From assembly GCA_034670305.1 (NCBI GenBank), contig JAXMNT010000072.1:1-33143 (forward strand): a stretch of 33,143 nucleotides of DNA. The letters are read 5' to 3'. Made by a program: the position numbers and the translations under genes. Under the pieces are notes generated by a model. The model was not told the DNA's origin and did not search any database. It was given only the letters and a program-made list of their open reading frames with translations. The number at the start of each line of letters is the position of its first letter. The first letter of the stretch is position 1. Source of the stretch: Deltaproteobacteria bacterium (lineage in GTDB: Bacteria > Myxococcota_A > Polyangia > Polyangiales > Houyiibacteriaceae). Below, piece by piece: positions 3,583-33,012 of this stretch.

Positions 3583-3951
3583 TCGGCTTCGGCGTCGGCG
3601 TCGACGTCGGCGTCGGCGTCGGTGTCGGACGCGTCGGCGTCGGCGTCGGGCGTCGGCGTCGGCGTCGGATTCGGGTCGGATTCGGCGTCGGCTTCGGCGT
3701 CGGCGTCGGTGTCGGCGTCGGTGTCGGCTTCGGATTCGGCTTCGGCGTCGGCTTCGGCCTCGGCTTCGGCTTCGGCGTCGGCTTCGGCCTCGGATTCGGC
3801 GTCGGCCTCGGCGTCGGATTCGGATTCGGCTTCGGCTCCGGCTTCCGCTTCGGCTTCGGCTTCCGCTTCCGCTTCCGCTTCCGCTTCCGCGTCCGCTTCC
3901 GCTTCCGCTTCCGCTTCCGCTTCCGCTTCCGCTTCCGCTTCCGCGTCCGCG
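3583..3951. repeat. Period-6 tract 1: (TCGG-NN)n followed by (TCCGCT)n
   Basis: ggcttc/ggcgtc/ggattc/ggcctc units up to about 3860, then a near-pure cgcttc run; ends 10 bp from the RCC1 gene stop. Confidence 0.95.
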
Positions 3952-16211: not shown

Positions 16212-16494
16212 TTCGGCGTCGGCGTCGGCGTCGCGGACAAACCACGGCACGGGCACGGACACGGGCACCGCGCGCATCCTCTCGGAGTCGGCTTCGGGTT
16301 CGGCCTCGGCGTCGGCTTCGGCGTCGGCTTCGGCGTCGGATTCGGCTTCGGGGTCGGCTTCGGCTTCGGCGTCGGCGTCGGCTTCGGATTCGGCTTCGGC
16401 TTCGGCGTCGGATTCGGCTTCGGCTTCGGCTTCGGATTCGGATTCGGCTTCGGCTTCGGCTTCGGATTCGGATTCGGCTTCGGCTTCGGCTTCG
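16212..16494. repeat. Period-6 tract 2: (TCGG-NN)n with an internal ACGGGC block
   Basis: Starts immediately after the TGA at 16209-16211; ggcgtc, then acgggc/acggac units, then ggcttc/ggattc units. Confidence 0.95.
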
Positions 16495-20415: not shown

Positions 20416-23400
20416 TTGCCGGCGGACGATGTCATCGACGGGCGCTATCAGATCCTCTCTCCTTTGGGCCGCGGCGGCATGGGAGAGGTGCTTCGTGTAC
20501 TGGACCTGACCACCGACCGAGAGCTCGCGCTCAAGCGCATGATCTTGCCCGACGGCGACCGGCGGCGACGCTCGGCGGCCCGCGCCATCCTGCGTTTCGA
20601 ACGCGAGTTCCACACCCTCGCTTCGCTGAGCCATCCCCGCATCGTGCGCGCCTTCGACTACGGGCGGACCGACATCGGCCCGTACTACACGATGGAGCTG
20701 CTCGAGGGCGAAGACCTGCGCGAGGTGGTGCGGTCCCGCGGACCGCTGGGCGCGGCTGAGACCTGCCGCATCGTTCGGGACATCGCCTCCGCGCTCGCGC
20801 TCGTGCATGCCCGAGGTCTGGTACACCGGGATCTGAGCCCGCGGAACGTGAGGCTCGTGGACGGCCGGGCGGTGCTGTTCGACTTCGGTGTGCTCGTGAA
20901 CGCCGGCGCCGCGCCCAATGTGGCCGGCACGCCGTCCTACGTGGCGCCCGAGATGGTGCACCGCCAACCGATCGATGGCCGCACGGATCTGTATTCGCTC
21001 GGCGTGCTCACCTACTTCGCCCTGACCGGCGTCGTGCCCTTCCGCGCGCGACGGCTCTCGGACCTCGAAGCGTTGTGGGCCCATCCTGCGCGGCCGCTCT
21101 CCGAACACGCCGACGTCCCCGAAGCGCTCGAGGATCTGGTGCTCGACCTCCTGTGCCCGTCGCCGCTCGGACGACCACCGTCGGCGGCCGTCCTCATCGA
21201 CAAGCTCACGTCGATCGGAGAGCTGCCGCGCGATGCCGAACTCGAGATCCAGGCGGGCTTCAACCTCACCGCTGCCCTCGTCGGGCGAGACGACGAACTG
21301 CTGATCTTGGAGCAGAAGATCGACGAGATCACCGGCGGCACCAAACCCAAGTTCGGCAGCGCGCCGGTCGGCCGCAAGAGTGGCGGGGTCGCCATCGAAG
21401 CACCGTCCGGCGTCGGCAAGTCGCGCCTGCTCGGCGAGGTCAAACTGCGCGGGGTGCTCAAAGGCGCGCGCACCCTTCACGTGGCGTGCGAACGGTCCGC
21501 CGGGGAACCTTTTGCGGCCATGGGCGCACTGTTCGAAGAGCTCTTTCGCACCGCGCCCGAAGTCGCTCAGGTCGCGGTGGAACCGCACGCGCCGGTGCTC
21601 GCACGCGCGTTCGACATCGTGCGGCAGCAATTTCCGATGGTGGACCTCGCGCCTTCGAGCGGCGACCCCGCCGAAGAACGCATGCGGTTGCAGCAGGGCG
21701 TGATGGGTGCCCTCTCCGCAGCGGCCAGCCTGGCGCCCTTGATGCTGCTCGTCGACGACGTGCAGCGATGCGACGAAGCGAGCGCCGCGGCGATCGCAGG
21801 ACTCGCGCGCGCGATCACGCCGGGCATGCTGGTCGTCACAGCGCGCCGGATGGGCGAGCCGGTGCAGGCGCCGGCGGCGGTCGCCGCGCTCGGCGCTGTG
21901 CGCCCCAAGATCCTCCTCGGCGGGCTCAGCCGTGAAGGGGTCGAGGCGCTGTTGGAGTCGCTCTTCGGCAGAGCCACCCACATCGGGCGCCTCGCGCACT
22001 GGATGCACCGCAAGACCGGGGGCTCCCCGCTCCACTGCACGGAGCTGACGCGGCGTCTGATCGAAGACGGGATCATCCGGTACGCCGAAGGCAGCTGGGT
22101 GATCCCGCGGGCGTTCGATCTCGATGTGCCGCCCACCGTCGCCGCGGCGATGACCCGGCGGGTCGGCCTGCTCTCCGCCGAGGCGCGCATGCTGGGCGAG
22201 CTCCTCGCGGTCGTCGGTCGGGAAGTCGAGCTGGACCGGGTCGTCGAGCTGGTGGGCACCGCGGGGCCCAACGAGTCGGACCAGGGCAGCGTCGGAACGT
22301 TCGCTTCGCTCGCCGAACTTCAGCACCAAGGGGTGCTCGTCGATCGCGGCGACGAGTTTCATTTTCGCCACGACAGCCTCCAGGAAGCCCTGCTCGCGGG
22401 ACTGAGTCCCGAGCGCGCCCGTTCGCTTCACGGGCGCGTGGCCTCCGTACTGCTCGGGGACGACGAGATCGACGAGGGGGTCGTCGGATGGCACCTGCTG
22501 GAAGCCGGCGAAGACCTGCGCGGCGCCGAACTCCTGGAAGCAGCCGGCCGCCGATTGTACGAGTCGCAGGCGCTGGCGGATTGCATCCAACCTCTCGGTG
22601 CCGCGCTCGCGGTGCGTGCCCGCCACGGTGCGTCGGAGCTGGACCTCGCCGAACTTCACTTCTTTCTGCTGAGCGCCGGGTGGGTCTCCGACGAGTCGAC
22701 CGGGCGCAAACACGCAGAGCCGGCCCTGCGGGCGTGGTCGCGGATCTCAGGGCTGAGCGTGGCCAGGCGCGTCGCCCGCGTGCTCGGTGCCCGCCTGGGC
22801 ATGTTGGTCGGCGTGTGCTGGGCGAACCTGCGGTGGATGTTCCGGCTCTTTCGCGGACCCGGTCCCTTGCGGTCCATGACGCTCTTTGCGCTGGCGCTCG
22901 GGTACGGCTCCGCCCTCTCCTACGCCGCGAACCGCCGGCGCGAACTGGACGCGTTCATCGAACTCGGTCGCCCGTTCCGCGCGTTCCGAGGTCTGGCGCC
23001 CTACGCAGGCTACGCGTTCGTCCTGGCGCTGCGCCACATCCTCCACGGTCACCTCGGCCGGGCGGACACCGAGATCACCCAAGCGCTGCACCTCGTCCGC
23101 AAGCGGCTGTTCAATCCGATGAGTGCCGACGAGCGGCGGCTGGTCGAAGCCGGCGTGCTCTCGGTGCGCATCCTCATCGACGTCAACCAGGGCGAACACG
23201 CCCGGCTCGAACGCGACATCGCACGCATGCGCGAACTCGGGCTTCAGTACTACGACCTCGCCGCCGACACGACGCGCATCGTCGCCGACCGCTACGCGGG
23301 GTTCGAGGCCCGGGCGCGCGCCAAGGAACGCGAGATCGAACCGCGCGCACTACAGCTCGGTTCCTGGTCCACCGATCTCCAGCTCGTCTTGTTCGGCCAC

Positions 23401-24267
23401 CCCGCGCACGCCTTCTGCCACGACGTCGAGGGCCTCAAACAAGACCTCGCCGCGCTCGAGAGCTACGTCGAGCAGGGCTTCGAGTTCACCCCTCGGGTCC
23501 TCATGGCCAAAGGCGAGCTCGCCCGCGAGCGCGGCGATCACTCCGAAGCATCCCGCCTGCTACAAGCCGCGTTCGAACGCGACGAAACGGACCACCTCAT
23601 CCGGCAGTACAGCAGCTGCGCCCTGGCCCAGAATGCGCTCGAGTCCCACGACTACCAGGAAGCCATCCGCTGGGGCGAACGCACCCTCGAACTCGGCGCG
23701 CGGGCGGAAGAGCGGCTGTGGCAACCACGGCTGCGCGCCATCGCTGCGCTCGCCAGAGCGCTCGACGCGGTGGGCGAAAGCGAGCGCGCCGTCGAGTTGC
23801 TGCGTGGCGCGATCGAAAAGGCCGAGGCCATCCGGCACGCGTGCCTCGCGGGGCACCTGCACGTCGCCCGGGCCGTCATCGCGCTGGCCCACGAAGACCA
23901 GGTGCTGTTTCAGCACCACCTGAACCTGGCCGAGTCCTGGTTGCGCCCCACCGAGAACCCGGGCCTGATCGCGCTGGTGGAACGACTCACCGAAGCCTCG
24001 AGAGACGCGCAGCCCGTCGTCGCTCGGCGGCGGCGGATCGGGGCGCCCAGCAGCTCGTTCTCACTCGACCTGCCCAGCACCGTGGCGACCCAGAGTCACT
24101 CCGACGAGGAAGACCCGTCTTCGGAAGCCGACCAGACGGTCGTCACCAGCGGCGCCCGCTCGATGCGCCCGGAGGGTGCGGGCGACGACACCGAGACCGC
24201 GCGTCCCACCGCGCACTCGGAGCTCGACGCGGAACTCGACGCGGACCCGGACTCGGTGCCTGAATGA
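20416..24267 (+). CDS. Ser/Thr protein kinase fused to AAA/STAND-type ATPase and helical repeats
   Basis: GRGGMG, ALK, HRDLSPRN, DFG, GTPSYVAPE and DLYSLG; then LVGR, Walker A (APSGVGKS), Walker B (LLVDD) and TGGSP; the TTG start is uncertain. Confidence 0.92.
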   Translation: MPADDVIDGRYQILSPLGRGGMGEVLRVLDLTTDRELALKRMILPDGDRRRRSAARAILRFEREFHTLASLSHPRIVRAFDYGRTDIGPYYTMELLEGEDLREVVRSRGPLGAAETCRIVRDIASALALVHARGLVHRDLSPRNVRLVDGRAVLFDFGVLVNAGAAPNVAGTPSYVAPEMVHRQPIDGRTDLYSLGVLTYFALTGVVPFRARRLSDLEALWAHPARPLSEHADVPEALEDLVLDLLCPSPLGRPPSAAVLIDKLTSIGELPRDAELEIQAGFNLTAALVGRDDELLILEQKIDEITGGTKPKFGSAPVGRKSGGVAIEAPSGVGKSRLLGEVKLRGVLKGARTLHVACERSAGEPFAAMGALFEELFRTAPEVAQVAVEPHAPVLARAFDIVRQQFPMVDLAPSSGDPAEERMRLQQGVMGALSAAASLAPLMLLVDDVQRCDEASAAAIAGLARAITPGMLVVTARRMGEPVQAPAAVAALGAVRPKILLGGLSREGVEALLESLFGRATHIGRLAHWMHRKTGGSPLHCTELTRRLIEDGIIRYAEGSWVIPRAFDLDVPPTVAAAMTRRVGLLSAEARMLGELLAVVGREVELDRVVELVGTAGPNESDQGSVGTFASLAELQHQGVLVDRGDEFHFRHDSLQEALLAGLSPERARSLHGRVASVLLGDDEIDEGVVGWHLLEAGEDLRGAELLEAAGRRLYESQALADCIQPLGAALAVRARHGASELDLAELHFFLLSAGWVSDESTGRKHAEPALRAWSRISGLSVARRVARVLGARLGMLVGVCWANLRWMFRLFRGPGPLRSMTLFALALGYGSALSYAANRRRELDAFIELGRPFRAFRGLAPYAGYAFVLALRHILHGHLGRADTEITQALHLVRKRLFNPMSADERRLVEAGVLSVRILIDVNQGEHARLERDIARMRELGLQYYDLAADTTRIVADRYAGFEARARAKEREIEPRALQLGSWSTDLQLVLFGHPAHAFCHDVEGLKQDLAALESYVEQGFEFTPRVLMAKGELARERGDHSEASRLLQAAFERDETDHLIRQYSSCALAQNALESHDYQEAIRWGERTLELGARAEERLWQPRLRAIAALARALDAVGESERAVELLRGAIEKAEAIRHACLAGHLHVARAVIALAHEDQVLFQHHLNLAESWLRPTENPGLIALVERLTEASRDAQPVVARRRRIGAPSSSFSLDLPSTVATQSHSDEEDPSSEADQTVVTSGARSMRPEGAGDDTETARPTAHSELDAELDADPDSVPE

Positions 24268-27734: not shown

Positions 27735-28058
27735 CGGAGCGGAAGCGGGATCGGCAGCAGCTCGGCGTCGGGATCGGCTCGCAGCGGCTTCGGGAGCGGC
27801 TTCGGCTTTGGCTTCGGCTTCGGGGTCGGGGTCGGCGTCGGCTTCGGCTTCGGCGTCGGCTTCGGCTTCGGGGTCGGGGTCGGAGCCGGCTTCGGCTTCG
27901 GCGTCGGCTTCGGCTTCGGGACCCACAGAATCAGCGGCAGGATCAGCGGCAGGATCAGCGGCAGCATCAGCGGCAGCATCAGCGGCAGAATCAGCGGCAG
28001 AATCAGCGGCAGAATCAGCGGCAGGAACAGCAGGAACAGCGTCCGCGGCAGCAGGCAT
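27735..28058. repeat. Period-6 tract 3: (TCGG-NN)n, then 12-mer ATCAGCGGCAGN x8
   Basis: ggcttc/ggggtc/ggcgtc units up to 27920; eight 12-bp units at 27930-28025. Confidence 0.95.
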
Positions 28059-30094: not shown

Positions 30095-30462
30095 GCAGGC
30101 AGCGGCGGCGGCAGCGGCAGCGACAGTGGCAGTGGCAGCGACAGCGGCAGCGGCAGCGGCAGCGGGCAGCGGCAGCGGCAGCGGGCAGCGGCAGCGGCAG
30201 CGGCAGCGGCAGCGGGCAGCGTCGGCGGTCGGAGCCGGCGTCGGCATCGGCTTCGGCATCGGAGTCGGCTTCGGCATCGGCGTCGGCATCGGCATCGGCA
30301 TCGGCATCGGCGTCGGCTTCGGGGTCGGCATCGGCGTCGGCTTCGGAGTCGGCATCGGCATCGGCGTCGGCATCGGCATCGGCTTCGGCTTCGGCATCGG
30401 CATCGGCTTCGGCGTCGGCTTCGGGAGCGGGTTCCGCAGCGGCTTCAGCAGCGGCATCGGAG
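30095..30462. repeat. Period-6 tract 4: (CAGCGG)n then (TCGG-NN)n
   Basis: Starts right after the yeiH TGA; ggcagc/gacagt units, then ggcatc/ggcttc/ggcgtc units; lies between convergent genes. Confidence 0.95.
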
Positions 30463-30476
30463 ACCTCCGATTCGGA

Positions 30477-31187
30477 TCAACCGCCCCCTCTCTCCTCCCG
30501 CCAGTTCCACACCGCTGCCTCGCCCGAGTGATCCGGCAGCAGCACCCCATCCTCTTTTCCGGGCCGCACGAACTTCGCTACGTGCAACACCGTGCCTTCC
30601 CGTTCGAGCCGCCACACCGCGCCCTCCGCGACGTCCAGGGCGCCGTGGTGGCCGTGGGTGCCCAGCCGTTCGAGCGCCAGCTCCACCGAACACGCAGCGC
30701 CATGATGAAGCAGCGCAGGCAGGACGACCTCCGCCCGTTCTGCCCGCTCGGTCAGCTCTTCGGTCGACGCGCGTTCGCTGCCCCGCATCAGGTCGAACGC
30801 AACGAACGGCTCGTGGTGGAGCGCGTACCGGGTGGCATGCGCCAGCGCCAACCATTCTCCCACCAAGCGTTCGCCGGGTTCCAACACCGCGAGGAATCGG
30901 TCCGCGTGAGTATCGACCCACCGCGCGAACAAGCGACGGCCTTCGTTGCGCGACTCGGCCGCCAAGTCGCCGGCCCGGCCGAGCGCAACGATCGCGTCGT
31001 CGATGCGCGCGACTCCGACGCACGATCCATCGAGCTTCTCGCGCACCAACACCTCCTCGCCAGGTTTGGCCGCGTCGATCAAGCGGGCCGCGATGGAGAC
31101 GTCGATGTGGCGGTCGGACGGTCCGGTACGTGACCCCGGCAGGTGCGGGATCGATCCGTAGCAGCGGTGGCCAAGCGGCCGCTTCAC
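30477..31187 (-). CDS. RNA ligase family protein (stand-alone adenylyltransferase domain)
   Basis: Covalent nucleotidyltransferase motifs I EKLDG, III GEW, IIIa FVAFD, IV EGAV and V AKFV; N-terminal [14 protein letters not shown] overlap with the upstream gene. Confidence 0.85.
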
Positions 31188-31894
31188 AAGTCGCCACCAT
31201 CCCGGCCGAGGACTCGGACCAGGTAGGCGCGGAGCTCAGCGAGAACTTCGATGTGATCTTCGGGGGCTTCGGGGCGGCGACGGCGGAAGCTGCGCCATCG
31301 GCGGTGGCCGCCCCGGCTGTGGCCGAACTCGTCGGCGAAGAAGCGGGCGGTCGAGCTCTCGAAGTCGGTGCTTCGGGATCGAAACGCGGTGTCGATCGCA
31401 TGCGCCACGTGGGCCTCGTCGACGTGGCCCGCTCGGATCATCAGCACGCAGTCGTACAGGTCTTTGCCGCGCCAGATGCCGCGACCGCGCTCGAACAGGC
31501 CGTGCACTTTCCATGCGAAGAGCACTTCGGACGCGACCGCTTTGAGCTCGACACCGCTTGGGGTCTGCAGGGGCACGGGCGGGCGGGTCATCGGGTCGCC
31601 GAAACCAACGTCCACTTGCACCGGTCCGGTGTCGCTCGGCACCTCCCCGCGAAGACCGGGGAACTCGGTCTCTTCCCAAATGCCCTGCCAGGCGACCGGA
31701 CCAAAGACGTCGAGCAGAGGTCGGCAGTCTTCGAAGGCGTCCACCCGCAGAAGGAAGTCCACGTCGTCGACCGGTCGCGGTGCCGGCGCCACGAGGCCGC
31801 AGACGACGAGTCCCCCGCGCAGAACGAACAAGTCCTGCGCAGGGGCCTCCGCAACCATCGACGCCACGCGCCACAGCGATTCGATGCGGCTCAT
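31184..31894 (-). CDS. AbiEii/AbiGii-like nucleotidyltransferase
   Basis: FVLRGG...R..DDVDF (Pol-beta-type G-G/DxD signature), VQVDVGFGD, E.LFAWK and KDLYD. Confidence 0.8.
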   Translation of the reverse strand: MSRIESLWRVASMVAEAPAQDLFVLRGGLVVCGLVAPAPRPVDDVDFLLRVDAFEDCRPLLDVFGPVAWQGIWEETEFPGLRGEVPSDTGPVQVDVGFGDPMTRPPVPLQTPSGVELKAVASEVLFAWKVHGLFERGRGIWRGKDLYDCVLMIRAGHVDEAHVAHAIDTAFRSRSTDFESSTARFFADEFGHSRGGHRRWRSFRRRRPEAPEDHIEVLAELRAYLVRVLGRDGGDL

Positions 31895-31911
31895 GGCCCT
31901 ACGTTACTCCG

Positions 31912-32619
31912 TCAAGCGGCTTCGGTGAGCCAGCCTCGGTCGATGGCGACGTTCGAGTCGTACACGGTGTACTCGCGCAGCTGATGCGAGAGTCCCCGCA
32001 GGATCCCAGCTTTCGCCAGCACCGCGCGCAGGTCCGACACGAGCAGCTTCCAGCGGGCATCGGCGGTCAGCCGACCGGCGCCGTACACCCGCAGCGTGAC
32101 GAAGCGCTCCTGGATGTCCGAGGTCGTGCGCCGTGCATTCGACGAGAGATGGGCCCCGTGCGGGCGCACTGTCTCGAGGACGGACGGCAGCACCACCTCG
32201 GCGCGCGAAGTCGGCAGCCGCACCTTCACGTGGAACTCGAAGTAGTTGTCCGGGAACGGGAGCGCGTCTGCGTCCGAATGCGGCACACCCTCACCGGGCA
32301 CGATCGCCTCGAGCTTCACGCGCGAGACGCGAAACTCGGCCCCAAGCGCACGGGCCAGCCCGAACACCTCCGCACCTGCAGCCGCCATCGTTCCGCGGTG
32401 GTGGGTGCACGTCATCGGCTGGGAACGCACCGCGCCACGCGGCAGCTCGATCTGCACGAACTTCGCGCCGAGGCTTCGGCAACGCGCGGCAAAACGCGGC
32501 AACTCGTCGACACATGCATCGACGGTGACGTGCGCCTCGAAGACACCCGCGAACGGGAGCTTGGAGAAGTCGGTGTTGTCTTTCCGAAACGCAGGGTGGA
32601 ACAGAGGTGAAGGAGTCAT
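31912..32619 (-). CDS. Hypothetical protein with duplicated FExHV motif
   Basis: Strong SD (AAGGAGG at 32626-32632) 6 nt before ATG 32619; FEAHVTV and YFEFHVKV halves, QPM, HLSSNA, ERFVTLR and EYTVYDSN..ID.GW. Confidence 0.8.
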   Translation of the reverse strand: MTPSPLFHPAFRKDNTDFSKLPFAGVFEAHVTVDACVDELPRFAARCRSLGAKFVQIELPRGAVRSQPMTCTHHRGTMAAAGAEVFGLARALGAEFRVSRVKLEAIVPGEGVPHSDADALPFPDNYFEFHVKVRLPTSRAEVVLPSVLETVRPHGAHLSSNARRTTSDIQERFVTLRVYGAGRLTADARWKLLVSDLRAVLAKAGILRGLSHQLREYTVYDSNVAIDRGWLTEAA

Positions 32620-32694
32620 TGCCAACCTCCTTTCGTGGTCGTGCCGGCGGGAACCTAAGTCGCCGTCGCGGCCGCGCCACAGCCGAAGAGGGTC

Positions 32695-33012
32695 GCCCGT
32701 GCCCGTGCCCGTGTTCGTGCCCGTGTTCGTTGCGATCCGATCCCGATCCCGAAGCCGATCCCGATCCCGAAGCCGATCCCGATCCCGAATCCGAAGCCGA
32801 TCCCGAAGCCGATCCCGAAGCCGATCCCGAAGCCGATCCCGAAGCCGATCCCGAAGCCGATCCCGAAGCCGATCCCGATTCCGATTCCGATTCCGATTCC
32901 GCTTCCGCTTCCGCTTCCGATTCCGATTCCGCTTCCGCTTCCGATTCCGCTTCCGCTGCCGCTTCCGCTTCCGCTGCCGCTGCCGCTGCCGCTGTCACTG
33001 TCACTGCCGCTG
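32695..33012. repeat. Period-6 tract 5 (reverse orientation): GCCCGT block, (CCGA-NN)n, (TCCGCT/TCCGAT)n, (CCGCTG)n
   Basis: Directly visible; includes a run of 12-mer GATCCCGAAGCC units. Confidence 0.95.

Follow-up and report, generated by a model that had tools for sequence, protein, structure and literature searches.

A candidate RNA-end module of AbiE ancestry built from an unnamed-family protein, a DUF1814/AbiEii nucleotidyltransferase and a minimal RNA ligase

What could a protein of an unnamed family, an AbiEii-type nucleotidyltransferase (NTase) and an RNA ligase do together when they are encoded in one operon? The question is raised by three genes at the right end of contig JAXMNT010000072.1 from a Deltaproteobacteria bacterium (genome 7.9 Mb, 96% complete); the window analysed here is this entire contig of 33,143 nt. 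The sequence and its list of open reading frames (ORFs) place the genes, designated g1, g2 and g3, consecutively and all on the minus strand. We propose, with a confidence that is evenly balanced, that they would encode a single three-enzyme module, derived from AbiE, that heals, extends and seals RNA ends, most likely those of tRNA. The trio looks like one RNA-end machine because its parts recur together in bacteria and are fused in marine algae. The features of the operon are the following.

31912-32619, minus strand: g1, 235 aa from ATG, protein of an unnamed family with two ferredoxin-like repeats in its model
31184-31894, minus strand: g2, 236 aa, DUF1814/AbiEii NTase of the DNA polymerase beta (Pol-beta) type
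30477-31187, minus strand: g3, 236 aa with a GTG start, ATP-dependent RNA ligase consisting of the adenylyltransferase domain alone
32626-32632, minus strand: Shine-Dalgarno sequence AAGGAGG, 6 nt 5' of the g1 ATG, read from the sequence

An initial annotation had described three co-oriented genes with a strong Shine-Dalgarno sequence, a short intergenic gap and a GTGA overlap, and all of these are present in the sequence. The gap between the g1 stop and the g2 start is 17 nt (31895-31911), and the g2 stop and the GTG start of g3 share GTGA at 31184-31187, an overlap that implies translational coupling. An in-frame TTG for g1 is located at 32625. A promoter and terminator scan on either side of the operon predicted 0 sites, so the operon boundaries rest on gene spacing only.

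The gene product of g2 is, by its conserved residues, a predicted intact DUF1814 Pol-beta NTase. It matches PF08843 (AbiEii) with 53.2 bits (cut-off 22.5, E 5.1e-14, profile positions 8-229 of 238) and the PADLOC AbiEii model PDLC02319 with an E-value of 3.4e-56. The LRGG, DVDF and KDLYD signatures on which the initial annotation had relied are found at residues 25-28, 44-47 and 144-148, and alignment A2 of 28 g2 orthologues bears them out as near-invariant, with D44, D46, D95, D100, K129, K144 and D148 invariant and G27 nearly so. We take the exact motif strings of the DUF1814 family to be hG[GS]...DxD, a further carboxylate, and C-terminal Lys and Asp motifs. The conserved residues of g2 are readily assigned, from the alignment, as the predicted Pol-beta carboxylates and the C-terminal Lys and Asp of DUF1814 enzymes, a family for which four motifs are described in passages of PMC7450476. 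AbiEii is the sole Pfam family of g2 at E<=1, with no match to the RlaP family PF10127, and a search of PDB sequences gave a weak match only, to AbiGII (9hlo, E 0.0056). A complex prediction for g2 with g1, made from A2 and A1 (the corresponding alignment of g1), scored 0.14 and 0.13 where the mark is 0.32, and is used as evidence neither way.

The gene product of g3 is predicted on the same grounds to be an intact, minimal lysine-adenylate RNA ligase. It matches PF09414 (RNA_ligase) with 60.1 bits (cut-off 27, E 3.9e-16) and contains the five ligase motifs claimed for it, namely KLDG (51-54), GEW (110-112), FDL (131-133), EG (188-189) and KxVRxxK (205-211). Residues K51, E111, D132, E188, K205 and K211 are invariant in alignment A3 of 22 g3 sequences, and in our own reading they would belong to motifs I (KxDG), III, IIIa, IV and V; an N-terminal IxHLPGSR segment is invariant in A3 as well. 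When the AlphaFold2 model of g3 (predicted local distance difference test, pLDDT, 95.1) was submitted to Foldseek, RNA ligases filled the list, and the best PDB matches were Naegleria NgrRnl, Rnl3 of Palaeococcus and Pyrococcus, the Trl1 ligase domain, REL1 (1xdn) and T4 Rnl2. The PHROGs matches of g3 are phrog_38169, of unknown function, and the RNA-ligase family phrog_548. A single-sequence search against solved structures returned KIR matches, which were discarded as spurious.

The remaining protein, g1, belongs to no Pfam or NCBIfam family, and Pfam at E<=1 gives nothing relevant. The FExHV motif noted in the initial annotation occurs twice, as FEAHV (27-31) and FEFHV (127-131). The AlphaFold2 model (pLDDT 91.3) consists of two beta-alpha-beta-beta-alpha-beta (ferredoxin-like) repeats, and the two ExH strands are pseudo-symmetric since each is the first strand of its repeat. 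Foldseek of this model against the PDB found only ferredoxin-repeat proteins with low template modelling (TM) scores and no clear solved relative; the A1 profile gave chance matches only (E>=0.11) against solved-structure sequences, the ESM Atlas matches were to unnamed clusters only, and PHROGs gave a weak match (E 0.0016) to a family of unknown function. Relatives of g1 number 373 in 90% clusters and make up 2240 50%-identity clusters at E<=1e-3; elsewhere in the genome of the window no paralogue of g1, g2 or g3 was found at this threshold. Alignment A1 (28 sequences, about 50% identity) contains 45 invariant columns. In a wider set of 14 homologues from bacteria, algae, phages and one giant-virus metagenome-assembled genome, E28, H30, R100, K102, E104, Y126, E128, H130, R177, E216 and D221 are kept in 14/14, and the core E28-x-H30-x-T32, R100-x-K102-x-E104, Y126-F-E128-x-H130-x-K132, S159, R177, E216 and D221 is kept in 12-14 of 14. 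These conserved polar strand residues look like an active site or a phosphate-binding site. An assignment of g1 as a 2H phosphoesterase, suggested by HVTV (30-33) and HLSS (157-160), was rejected at the profile level, no 2H Pfam family being matched at E<=1. Proteins of the ThpR/LigT 2H type (PF13563) are present in 10/25 relatives searched, and in the genome of the window 0/7 candidates match this family.

Seen from g1, the conserved unit is the pair of g1 and g2, which occurs in Myxococcota, Cyanobacteria, Planctomycetota and others and which the ligase joins in some lineages only. Among 71 genome loci with a g1 relative, drawn from Myxococcota, Nostocales-type cyanobacteria, Gemmataceae and a few other groups, 60 have a co-oriented g2 relative <=600 nt downstream and 61 have any g2 match; three of the ten loci without one end <700 nt past g1. 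A g3 relative is present in 22 of the 71, all myxobacterial, and in every one of them it precedes the pair on the same strand, giving the order g3-g1-g2. The order g1-g2-g3 is that of the window, of locus L104 and of L132, the last being a close relative from another metagenome whose g2 and g3 are 79% and 80% identical to those of the window. A Ham1/ITPase domain precedes g1 or is fused to it in 16/71 loci, and Ham1 (PF01725) is carried by 38 of 120 g1 relatives among the matches listed. Clustering of all neighbouring ORFs in the 71 loci revealed no widely shared neighbour beyond g2 and the ligase, the other clusters reflecting antisense shadow ORFs or local synteny that is confined to close relatives, and tblastn found no T4-Rnl1-like ligase beside g1 in them. 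The earlier description of the trio as a unit is thus right about the recurrent association and has to be amended as to the unit itself and its usual gene order, and for a Ham1 domain that is often fused to g1.

The linkage is tighter when it is followed along the ligase tree. In a sample of 401 genomes of the phylum, a strong g3 match (E<1e-99) occurs in four, and g1 and g2 adjoin it in 4/4. Of 80 metagenome loci that encode a g3-type ligase, 18 contain g1, 15 contain g2 and 22 contain Ham1, and where at least 900 nt are available on both sides of the ligase, only 10 of 32 loci have g1 and g2. This low partner count is resolved by a quick maximum-likelihood tree of 106 ligase rows, with support from the Shimodaira-Hasegawa-like approximate likelihood-ratio test (SH-aLRT) and midpoint rooting, from which rows covering <170 query residues or containing stop codons had been dropped: the partnerless in-group ligases with flanks of at least 1500 nt (15/15) all fall in one 46-row clade with a support of 99. 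The remaining 56 in-group rows comprise 51 with Ham1, g1 or g2 in the locus, the window itself, and four with flanks that are too short. Because the partnerless rows are confined to the sister lineage, the ligase lineage of the window is tightly tied to g1, g2 and Ham1.

Several further ligase settings were seen in the course of this survey. Members of the 46-row sister clade are 43-55% identical to g3 and have no other widely shared neighbour. Ligases 31-34% identical to g3 (L076-L079) stand directly behind the PADLOC defence candidates PDC-M07A (an AAA_21/AAA_15 ATPase) and PDC-M07B (about 150 aa), the PDC-M07 model itself not including the ligase, and a ligase 28% identical to g3 (L082) follows a related HEC-01A-type AAA ATPase. 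More distant PF09414 ligases of the phylum lie beside HD+AAA_33 kinase-like proteins at three loci (L080; L081, 4288-6904; L084, 4965-6898), a layout that resembles classical heal-and-seal systems; at L081 a methyltransferase is also beside the ligase and HD+AAA_33 protein.

Fusion proteins join the same parts in single chains. Among the best 150 g1 profile matches, 41 long proteins were scanned with Pfam at E<=1e-4; the rows below do not sum to 41 because several proteins carry more than one family.

Ham1: 12 of 41 long g1 relatives
AbiEii: 5 of 41
RNA ligase: 2 of 41
Metallo-beta-lactamase (MBL) hydrolase: 1 of 41
Lit (PF07314): 1 of 41
No Pfam family: 23 of 41

A g3-type ligase is fused to g1 in P0275 (hhalign probability 100, E 2.6e-55), g1 and AbiEii form one chain in P0307, P0340 and P0350, and P0320 (1398 aa) combines AbiEii, Ham1, g1 and an RNA ligase. 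The corresponding architecture is found in the haptophyte Emiliania huxleyi, whose XP_005786036.1 (P0366) consists of a g2-type NTase (hhalign probability 100, E 3.3e-44), Ham1, g1 and a C-terminal part with EKLDGS that is named T4 RNA ligase 1-like in UniRef; this protein matches the same PADLOC sub-models as g2 and g1 of the window. P0339 (KAL3899087.1 of Prymnesium sp.) and metagenome proteins contain Ham1 and g1, in some cases along with the NTase or ligase. Pfam assigns the algal ligase domain to PF09511, not PF09414, which suggests that the ligase function was kept while the family was replaced, and the presence of NTase/Ham1/g1/ligase chains in haptophytes implies that the module has passed between bacteria and algae. 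Taken together, the three genes, plus Ham1 in many relatives, are linked by adjacency, by reshuffling of gene order without loss and by fusion.

The haptophyte and other fused chains (P0366, P0339, P0320 and P0390) span 740-1400 aa. In P0329 and P0389 the g1 domain is joined to an MBL hydrolase whose N-terminus gives a weak tRNase Z-type match (E 3e-4). Stand-alone g1-like proteins, annotated as hypothetical, are encoded by phages, in eight Aeromonas records and Ralstonia RP13; L085 and L086 are viral g1-like loci as well. Among giant viruses, Fadolivirus, Yasminevirus, Klosneuvirus and Bodo saltans virus have a g1-like protein alone (BFVD, TM up to 0.82). Two of the phage genes are located as follows.

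5980-6606 of L087: g1-like gene of Aeromonas phage LAh_8
6001-6618 of L088: g1-like gene of Ralstonia phage RP13, in a region with tRNA genes

In the route that we propose, g1 would prepare or trim the RNA end as a predicted phosphoesterase or nuclease acting through its two pseudo-symmetric ExH strands, g2 would add one or a few nucleotides to the 3'-OH, and g3 would seal the 3'-OH/5'-phosphate nick. Such a heal/extend/seal route would be functionally analogous to the operons that combine RlaP with an RNA ligase. A bolder version, which we consider unlikely in its full extent, makes g1 the founder of a new class of RNA-end enzymes that forms with the NTase and the ligase a mobile machine to excise or heal, refill and seal, spread across bacteria, haptophyte algae and large viruses; in effect this would amount to excision repair of tRNA or other RNA that evolved from an abortive-infection toxin system.

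A number of observations weigh against heal/extend/seal. The initial annotation was correct that no known healing enzyme is present, as the operon contains no match to Pnkp, Hen1 or 2H, and g1 has no detectable kinship to any known end-healing family by Pfam at E<=1 or by hhalign against 2H and DUF4031 proteins. Comparison of A1 with ten PF13563 proteins from relatives gave a probability of 0.7%; for DUF4031 (PF13223), likewise rejected, the Pfam match (E 0.11) fell below the cut-off and hhalign against a DUF4031 protein again gave 0.7%. Since no kinase or recognised phosphatase is present, 5'-OH breaks could not be sealed by the trio alone. The g1-g2 pair would seem to be self-sufficient and the ligase an add-on, because 49 of the 71 loci lack the ligase, and the sister clade of 46 ligases (L105-L171) is without any partner-associated member, the 15 rows with adequate flanks lacking g1, g2 and Ham1 alike. 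Some of the bacterial fusions come from short contigs and are possible gene-calling run-throughs; the algal ones recur in two genera. The module clearly descends from AbiE-type systems, and two further points count against this route. In 5/5 genomes checked, the gene immediately upstream of a g2-like NTase (A2 profile E 1e-47 to 1e-50) encodes a canonical AbiEi_4 winged-helix protein, and the family of g1 is filed by PADLOC as AbiEi (PDLC02277).

It is accordingly conceivable, if somewhat doubtful, that the operon is an AbiE/MenAT-type toxin-antitoxin or abortive-infection pair, in which g2 would be a toxin that extends tRNA 3' ends, g1 a non-homologous replacement of AbiEi (acting by binding or enzymatically, in a type VII-like manner or by removing the additions of g2), and the ligase an accessory that resets damaged RNA or linked cargo. 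The PADLOC AbiEi and AbiEii models match g1 (E 5e-51) and g2 (E 3e-56), so a defence annotator would call the two genes an AbiE system. Being directly upstream of g2 with a 17-nt gap, g1 has an antitoxin-like position, and because the nearest relatives of g2 outside the g1-linked set have AbiEi_4 upstream, it sits in the antitoxin slot and has apparently displaced the antitoxin. Passages of PMC7450476 report that the antitoxins found with DUF1814 toxins are of several unrelated kinds (MazE-like, COG4861 and COG5340) and that over-expression of RNase PH relieves MenT3 toxicity, which indicates that an enzyme can undo the damage; according to parts of PMC11375011, unrelated MenA antitoxins induce auto-phosphorylation of the toxin. 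The spread of g1 is patchy: g2-like NTases are common in the phylum (121/401 genomes at E<=1e-8) and g1 is rare, being found in 10/401, of which six have g2 adjacent by coordinates, and no shared synteny of the operon surroundings with relatives was found. Phages carry g1 alone, which could serve counter-defence, and related ligases sit behind the defence candidate PDC-M07A/B. Against this pairing, g1 lacks a DNA-binding domain and shows much stronger conservation than is usual for antitoxins. The statement in the initial annotation that no antitoxin is recognisable is accurate in that g1 is no winged-helix AbiEi (the N-terminal winged helix-turn-helix of AbiEi/COG5340-type antitoxins is missing from its model and Pfam AbiEi is not matched at E<=1), and the PADLOC name apparently reflects the position beside AbiEii; it is inaccurate in that a defence database does list the family as AbiEi, in whose slot the gene lies. 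Fusions of g1 with the NTase, Ham1, the ligase and an MBL hydrolase, including the four-domain haptophyte proteins, are more in keeping with a pathway than with an antagonist, a plain pair offers no evident role for the ligase, which is nonetheless tightly kept in its lineage, and no defence genes were recognised beside the operon within the window. The heal/extend/seal and toxin-antitoxin readings overlap, and either alternative of the initial annotation, a heal/tag/seal pathway or a toxin with a repair module, is still plausible.

An action on nucleotides or on a target other than RNA is improbable in our view: the module would make or destroy a nucleotide signal, sanitise the nucleoside triphosphate (NTP) pool, g1 working next to Ham1 as a hydrolase that binds nucleotides or pyrophosphate, or nucleotidylylate a protein or DNA end. 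It would account for the frequent fusion of g1 to the Ham1/ITPase NTP pyrophosphatase (in the 38 of 120 among the matches listed and the 12 of 41 long relatives given above) and for the strand-borne His, Lys, Arg and Glu set of g1, which suits phosphate binding. The three known partner enzymes all release pyrophosphate, as is established enzymology. That the third partner is an RNA ligase, drawn from two different families, speaks for polynucleotide ends instead, and one fusion partner of g1 is the MBL hydrolase with the weak tRNase Z-type N-terminus. The characterised DUF1814 enzymes, moreover, act on tRNA 3' ends according to passages of PMC7450476 and PMC11375011. That the genes are chance neighbours with unrelated functions would agree with the lack of a predicted promoter or terminator around the operon, and is nonetheless hardly credible, since adjacency recurs across phyla, partners are retained though gene order changes, fusion proteins exist, and the stop codon of g2 overlaps the start codon of g3.

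The surroundings of the operon have no evident relation to it, as the initial annotation had stated: a LysR regulator and a PF03601 membrane protein adjoin it downstream, metabolic genes and a Ser/Thr kinase-AAA-TPR protein lie farther off in the window, and the contig ends about 520 nt upstream. No defence island was recognised among the neighbouring genes within the window. The kinase-AAA-TPR protein, encoded at 20416-24267 on the plus strand, has 1283 aa and carries a Ser/Thr protein kinase domain together with an AAA_16 ATPase and TPR repeats. The stretch is present in four DNA sequencing runs of one study, with no RNA run listed.

Intergenic spacers of the window contain tandem arrays of GC-rich hexamers (TCGGCT, GGCATC and GGCAGC types), which give rise to long spurious ORFs (GFGIG..., SGSGS...) and are located at the following positions.

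3583-3941: hexamer array
16288-16494: hexamer array
27746-28024: hexamer array
30098-30460: hexamer array
32695-33012: hexamer array

Two of these arrays bracket the operon as an imperfect inverted repeat with arms of about 225 nt and 73-78% complementarity. We considered them as the boundary of a mobile element and rejected this: the genome contains 699 arrays of at least 100 nt, which add up to 145 kb with a median length of 194 nt and of which 32 lie close to contig ends, and the cassettes of relatives are without them, so the arrays are a genome-wide feature.

The belief that no system of this composition has been characterised agrees with the searchable literature, in which none is described. 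No relevant paper on an association of AbiEii with an RNA ligase or with Ham1 was found in the full-text literature, leaving aside a possible prior mention by Burroughs and Aravind in 2016. That work reportedly set out a general syntax of ligase, NTase and end-modifier that spread between prokaryotes and microbial eukaryotes, and the trio would fit this syntax. In the passages of PMC3632139 that name them, DUF1814 and RNA ligase occur in separate, unrelated places.

DUF1814/AbiEii enzymes have been studied as tRNA-poisoning toxins. In one lineage the antitoxin has here been swapped for a conserved enzyme-like protein, with repeated additions of an RNA ligase and of an NTP pyrophosphatase that go as far as four-domain single chains in eukaryotic algae. 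Should the module prove to repair or remodel RNA ends, this would be a case of a toxin fold converted to repair, or of the opposite conversion; a function would be assigned to a family that comprises more than 2,000 clusters, is covered by neither Pfam nor NCBIfam models and occurs in phages and giant viruses as well, and the RNA-repair toolkit would gain a new end-processing activity. If the toxin-antitoxin pair is correct instead, g1 would be a new, probably enzymatic, type of antitoxin and the ligase a built-in reset.

The trio is a variation on known kinds of system whose core protein, g1, is uncharacterised. The best fold matches of g3 are ligases of the Rnl5 type (NgrRnl) and Rnl3 type (Pyrococcus, Palaeococcus), with TM of about 0.5 on the query, 15-20% identity and shared motifs; g3 differs in having only 236 aa, no extra N- or C-terminal domains and an IxHLPGSR segment of its own. 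In heal-and-seal systems such as T4 Pnkp with Rnl1/Rnl2, bacterial Pnkp-Hen1 and fungal and plant Trl1, an ATP-dependent RNA ligase is likewise coupled to other end-processing activities, whereas the P-loop kinase, HD or metallophosphatase, 2H and methyltransferase domains of such systems were not found in g1, g2 and g3 with Pfam, NCBIfam and, for 2H, hhalign. Kinetoplastid U-insertion editing uses an endonuclease, a terminal uridylyl transferase and the REL1 ligase. The likeness to it is one of logic only, in that an end is created or prepared, a Pol-beta NTase adds nucleotides and a ligase seals, and REL1 is among the fold matches of g3; the trio differs in having no guide RNA or editosome context, and g1 is not a known editing nuclease.

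RlaP (PF10127), encoded in RNA-ligase operons, adds one or two nucleoside monophosphates to an RNA 3'-OH and prefers damaged RNA, according to parts of the preprint 10.64898/2025.12.29.696909. The RtcB-RlaP-RtcA operon of Pseudomonas, in so far as the same parts describe it, resembles the trio in encoding a Pol-beta-type NTase with an RNA ligase and in adding nucleotides before or around ligation. By contrast, g2 belongs to DUF1814/AbiEii and not to PF10127, g3 is an ATP-dependent PF09414 ligase and not RtcB, and the trio is without RtcA, kinase or phosphatase, its third part being g1 of the unnamed family. With AbiE and MenAT the trio shares an NTase of the DUF1814/AbiEii family whose motif residues are intact and a partner gene directly upstream. 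It departs from them in this partner, which is not a COG5340 winged-helix protein and is modelled as two ferredoxin-like repeats, and in the RNA ligase that is attached here, together with Ham1 in relatives, the same domains being fused in eukaryotic proteins.

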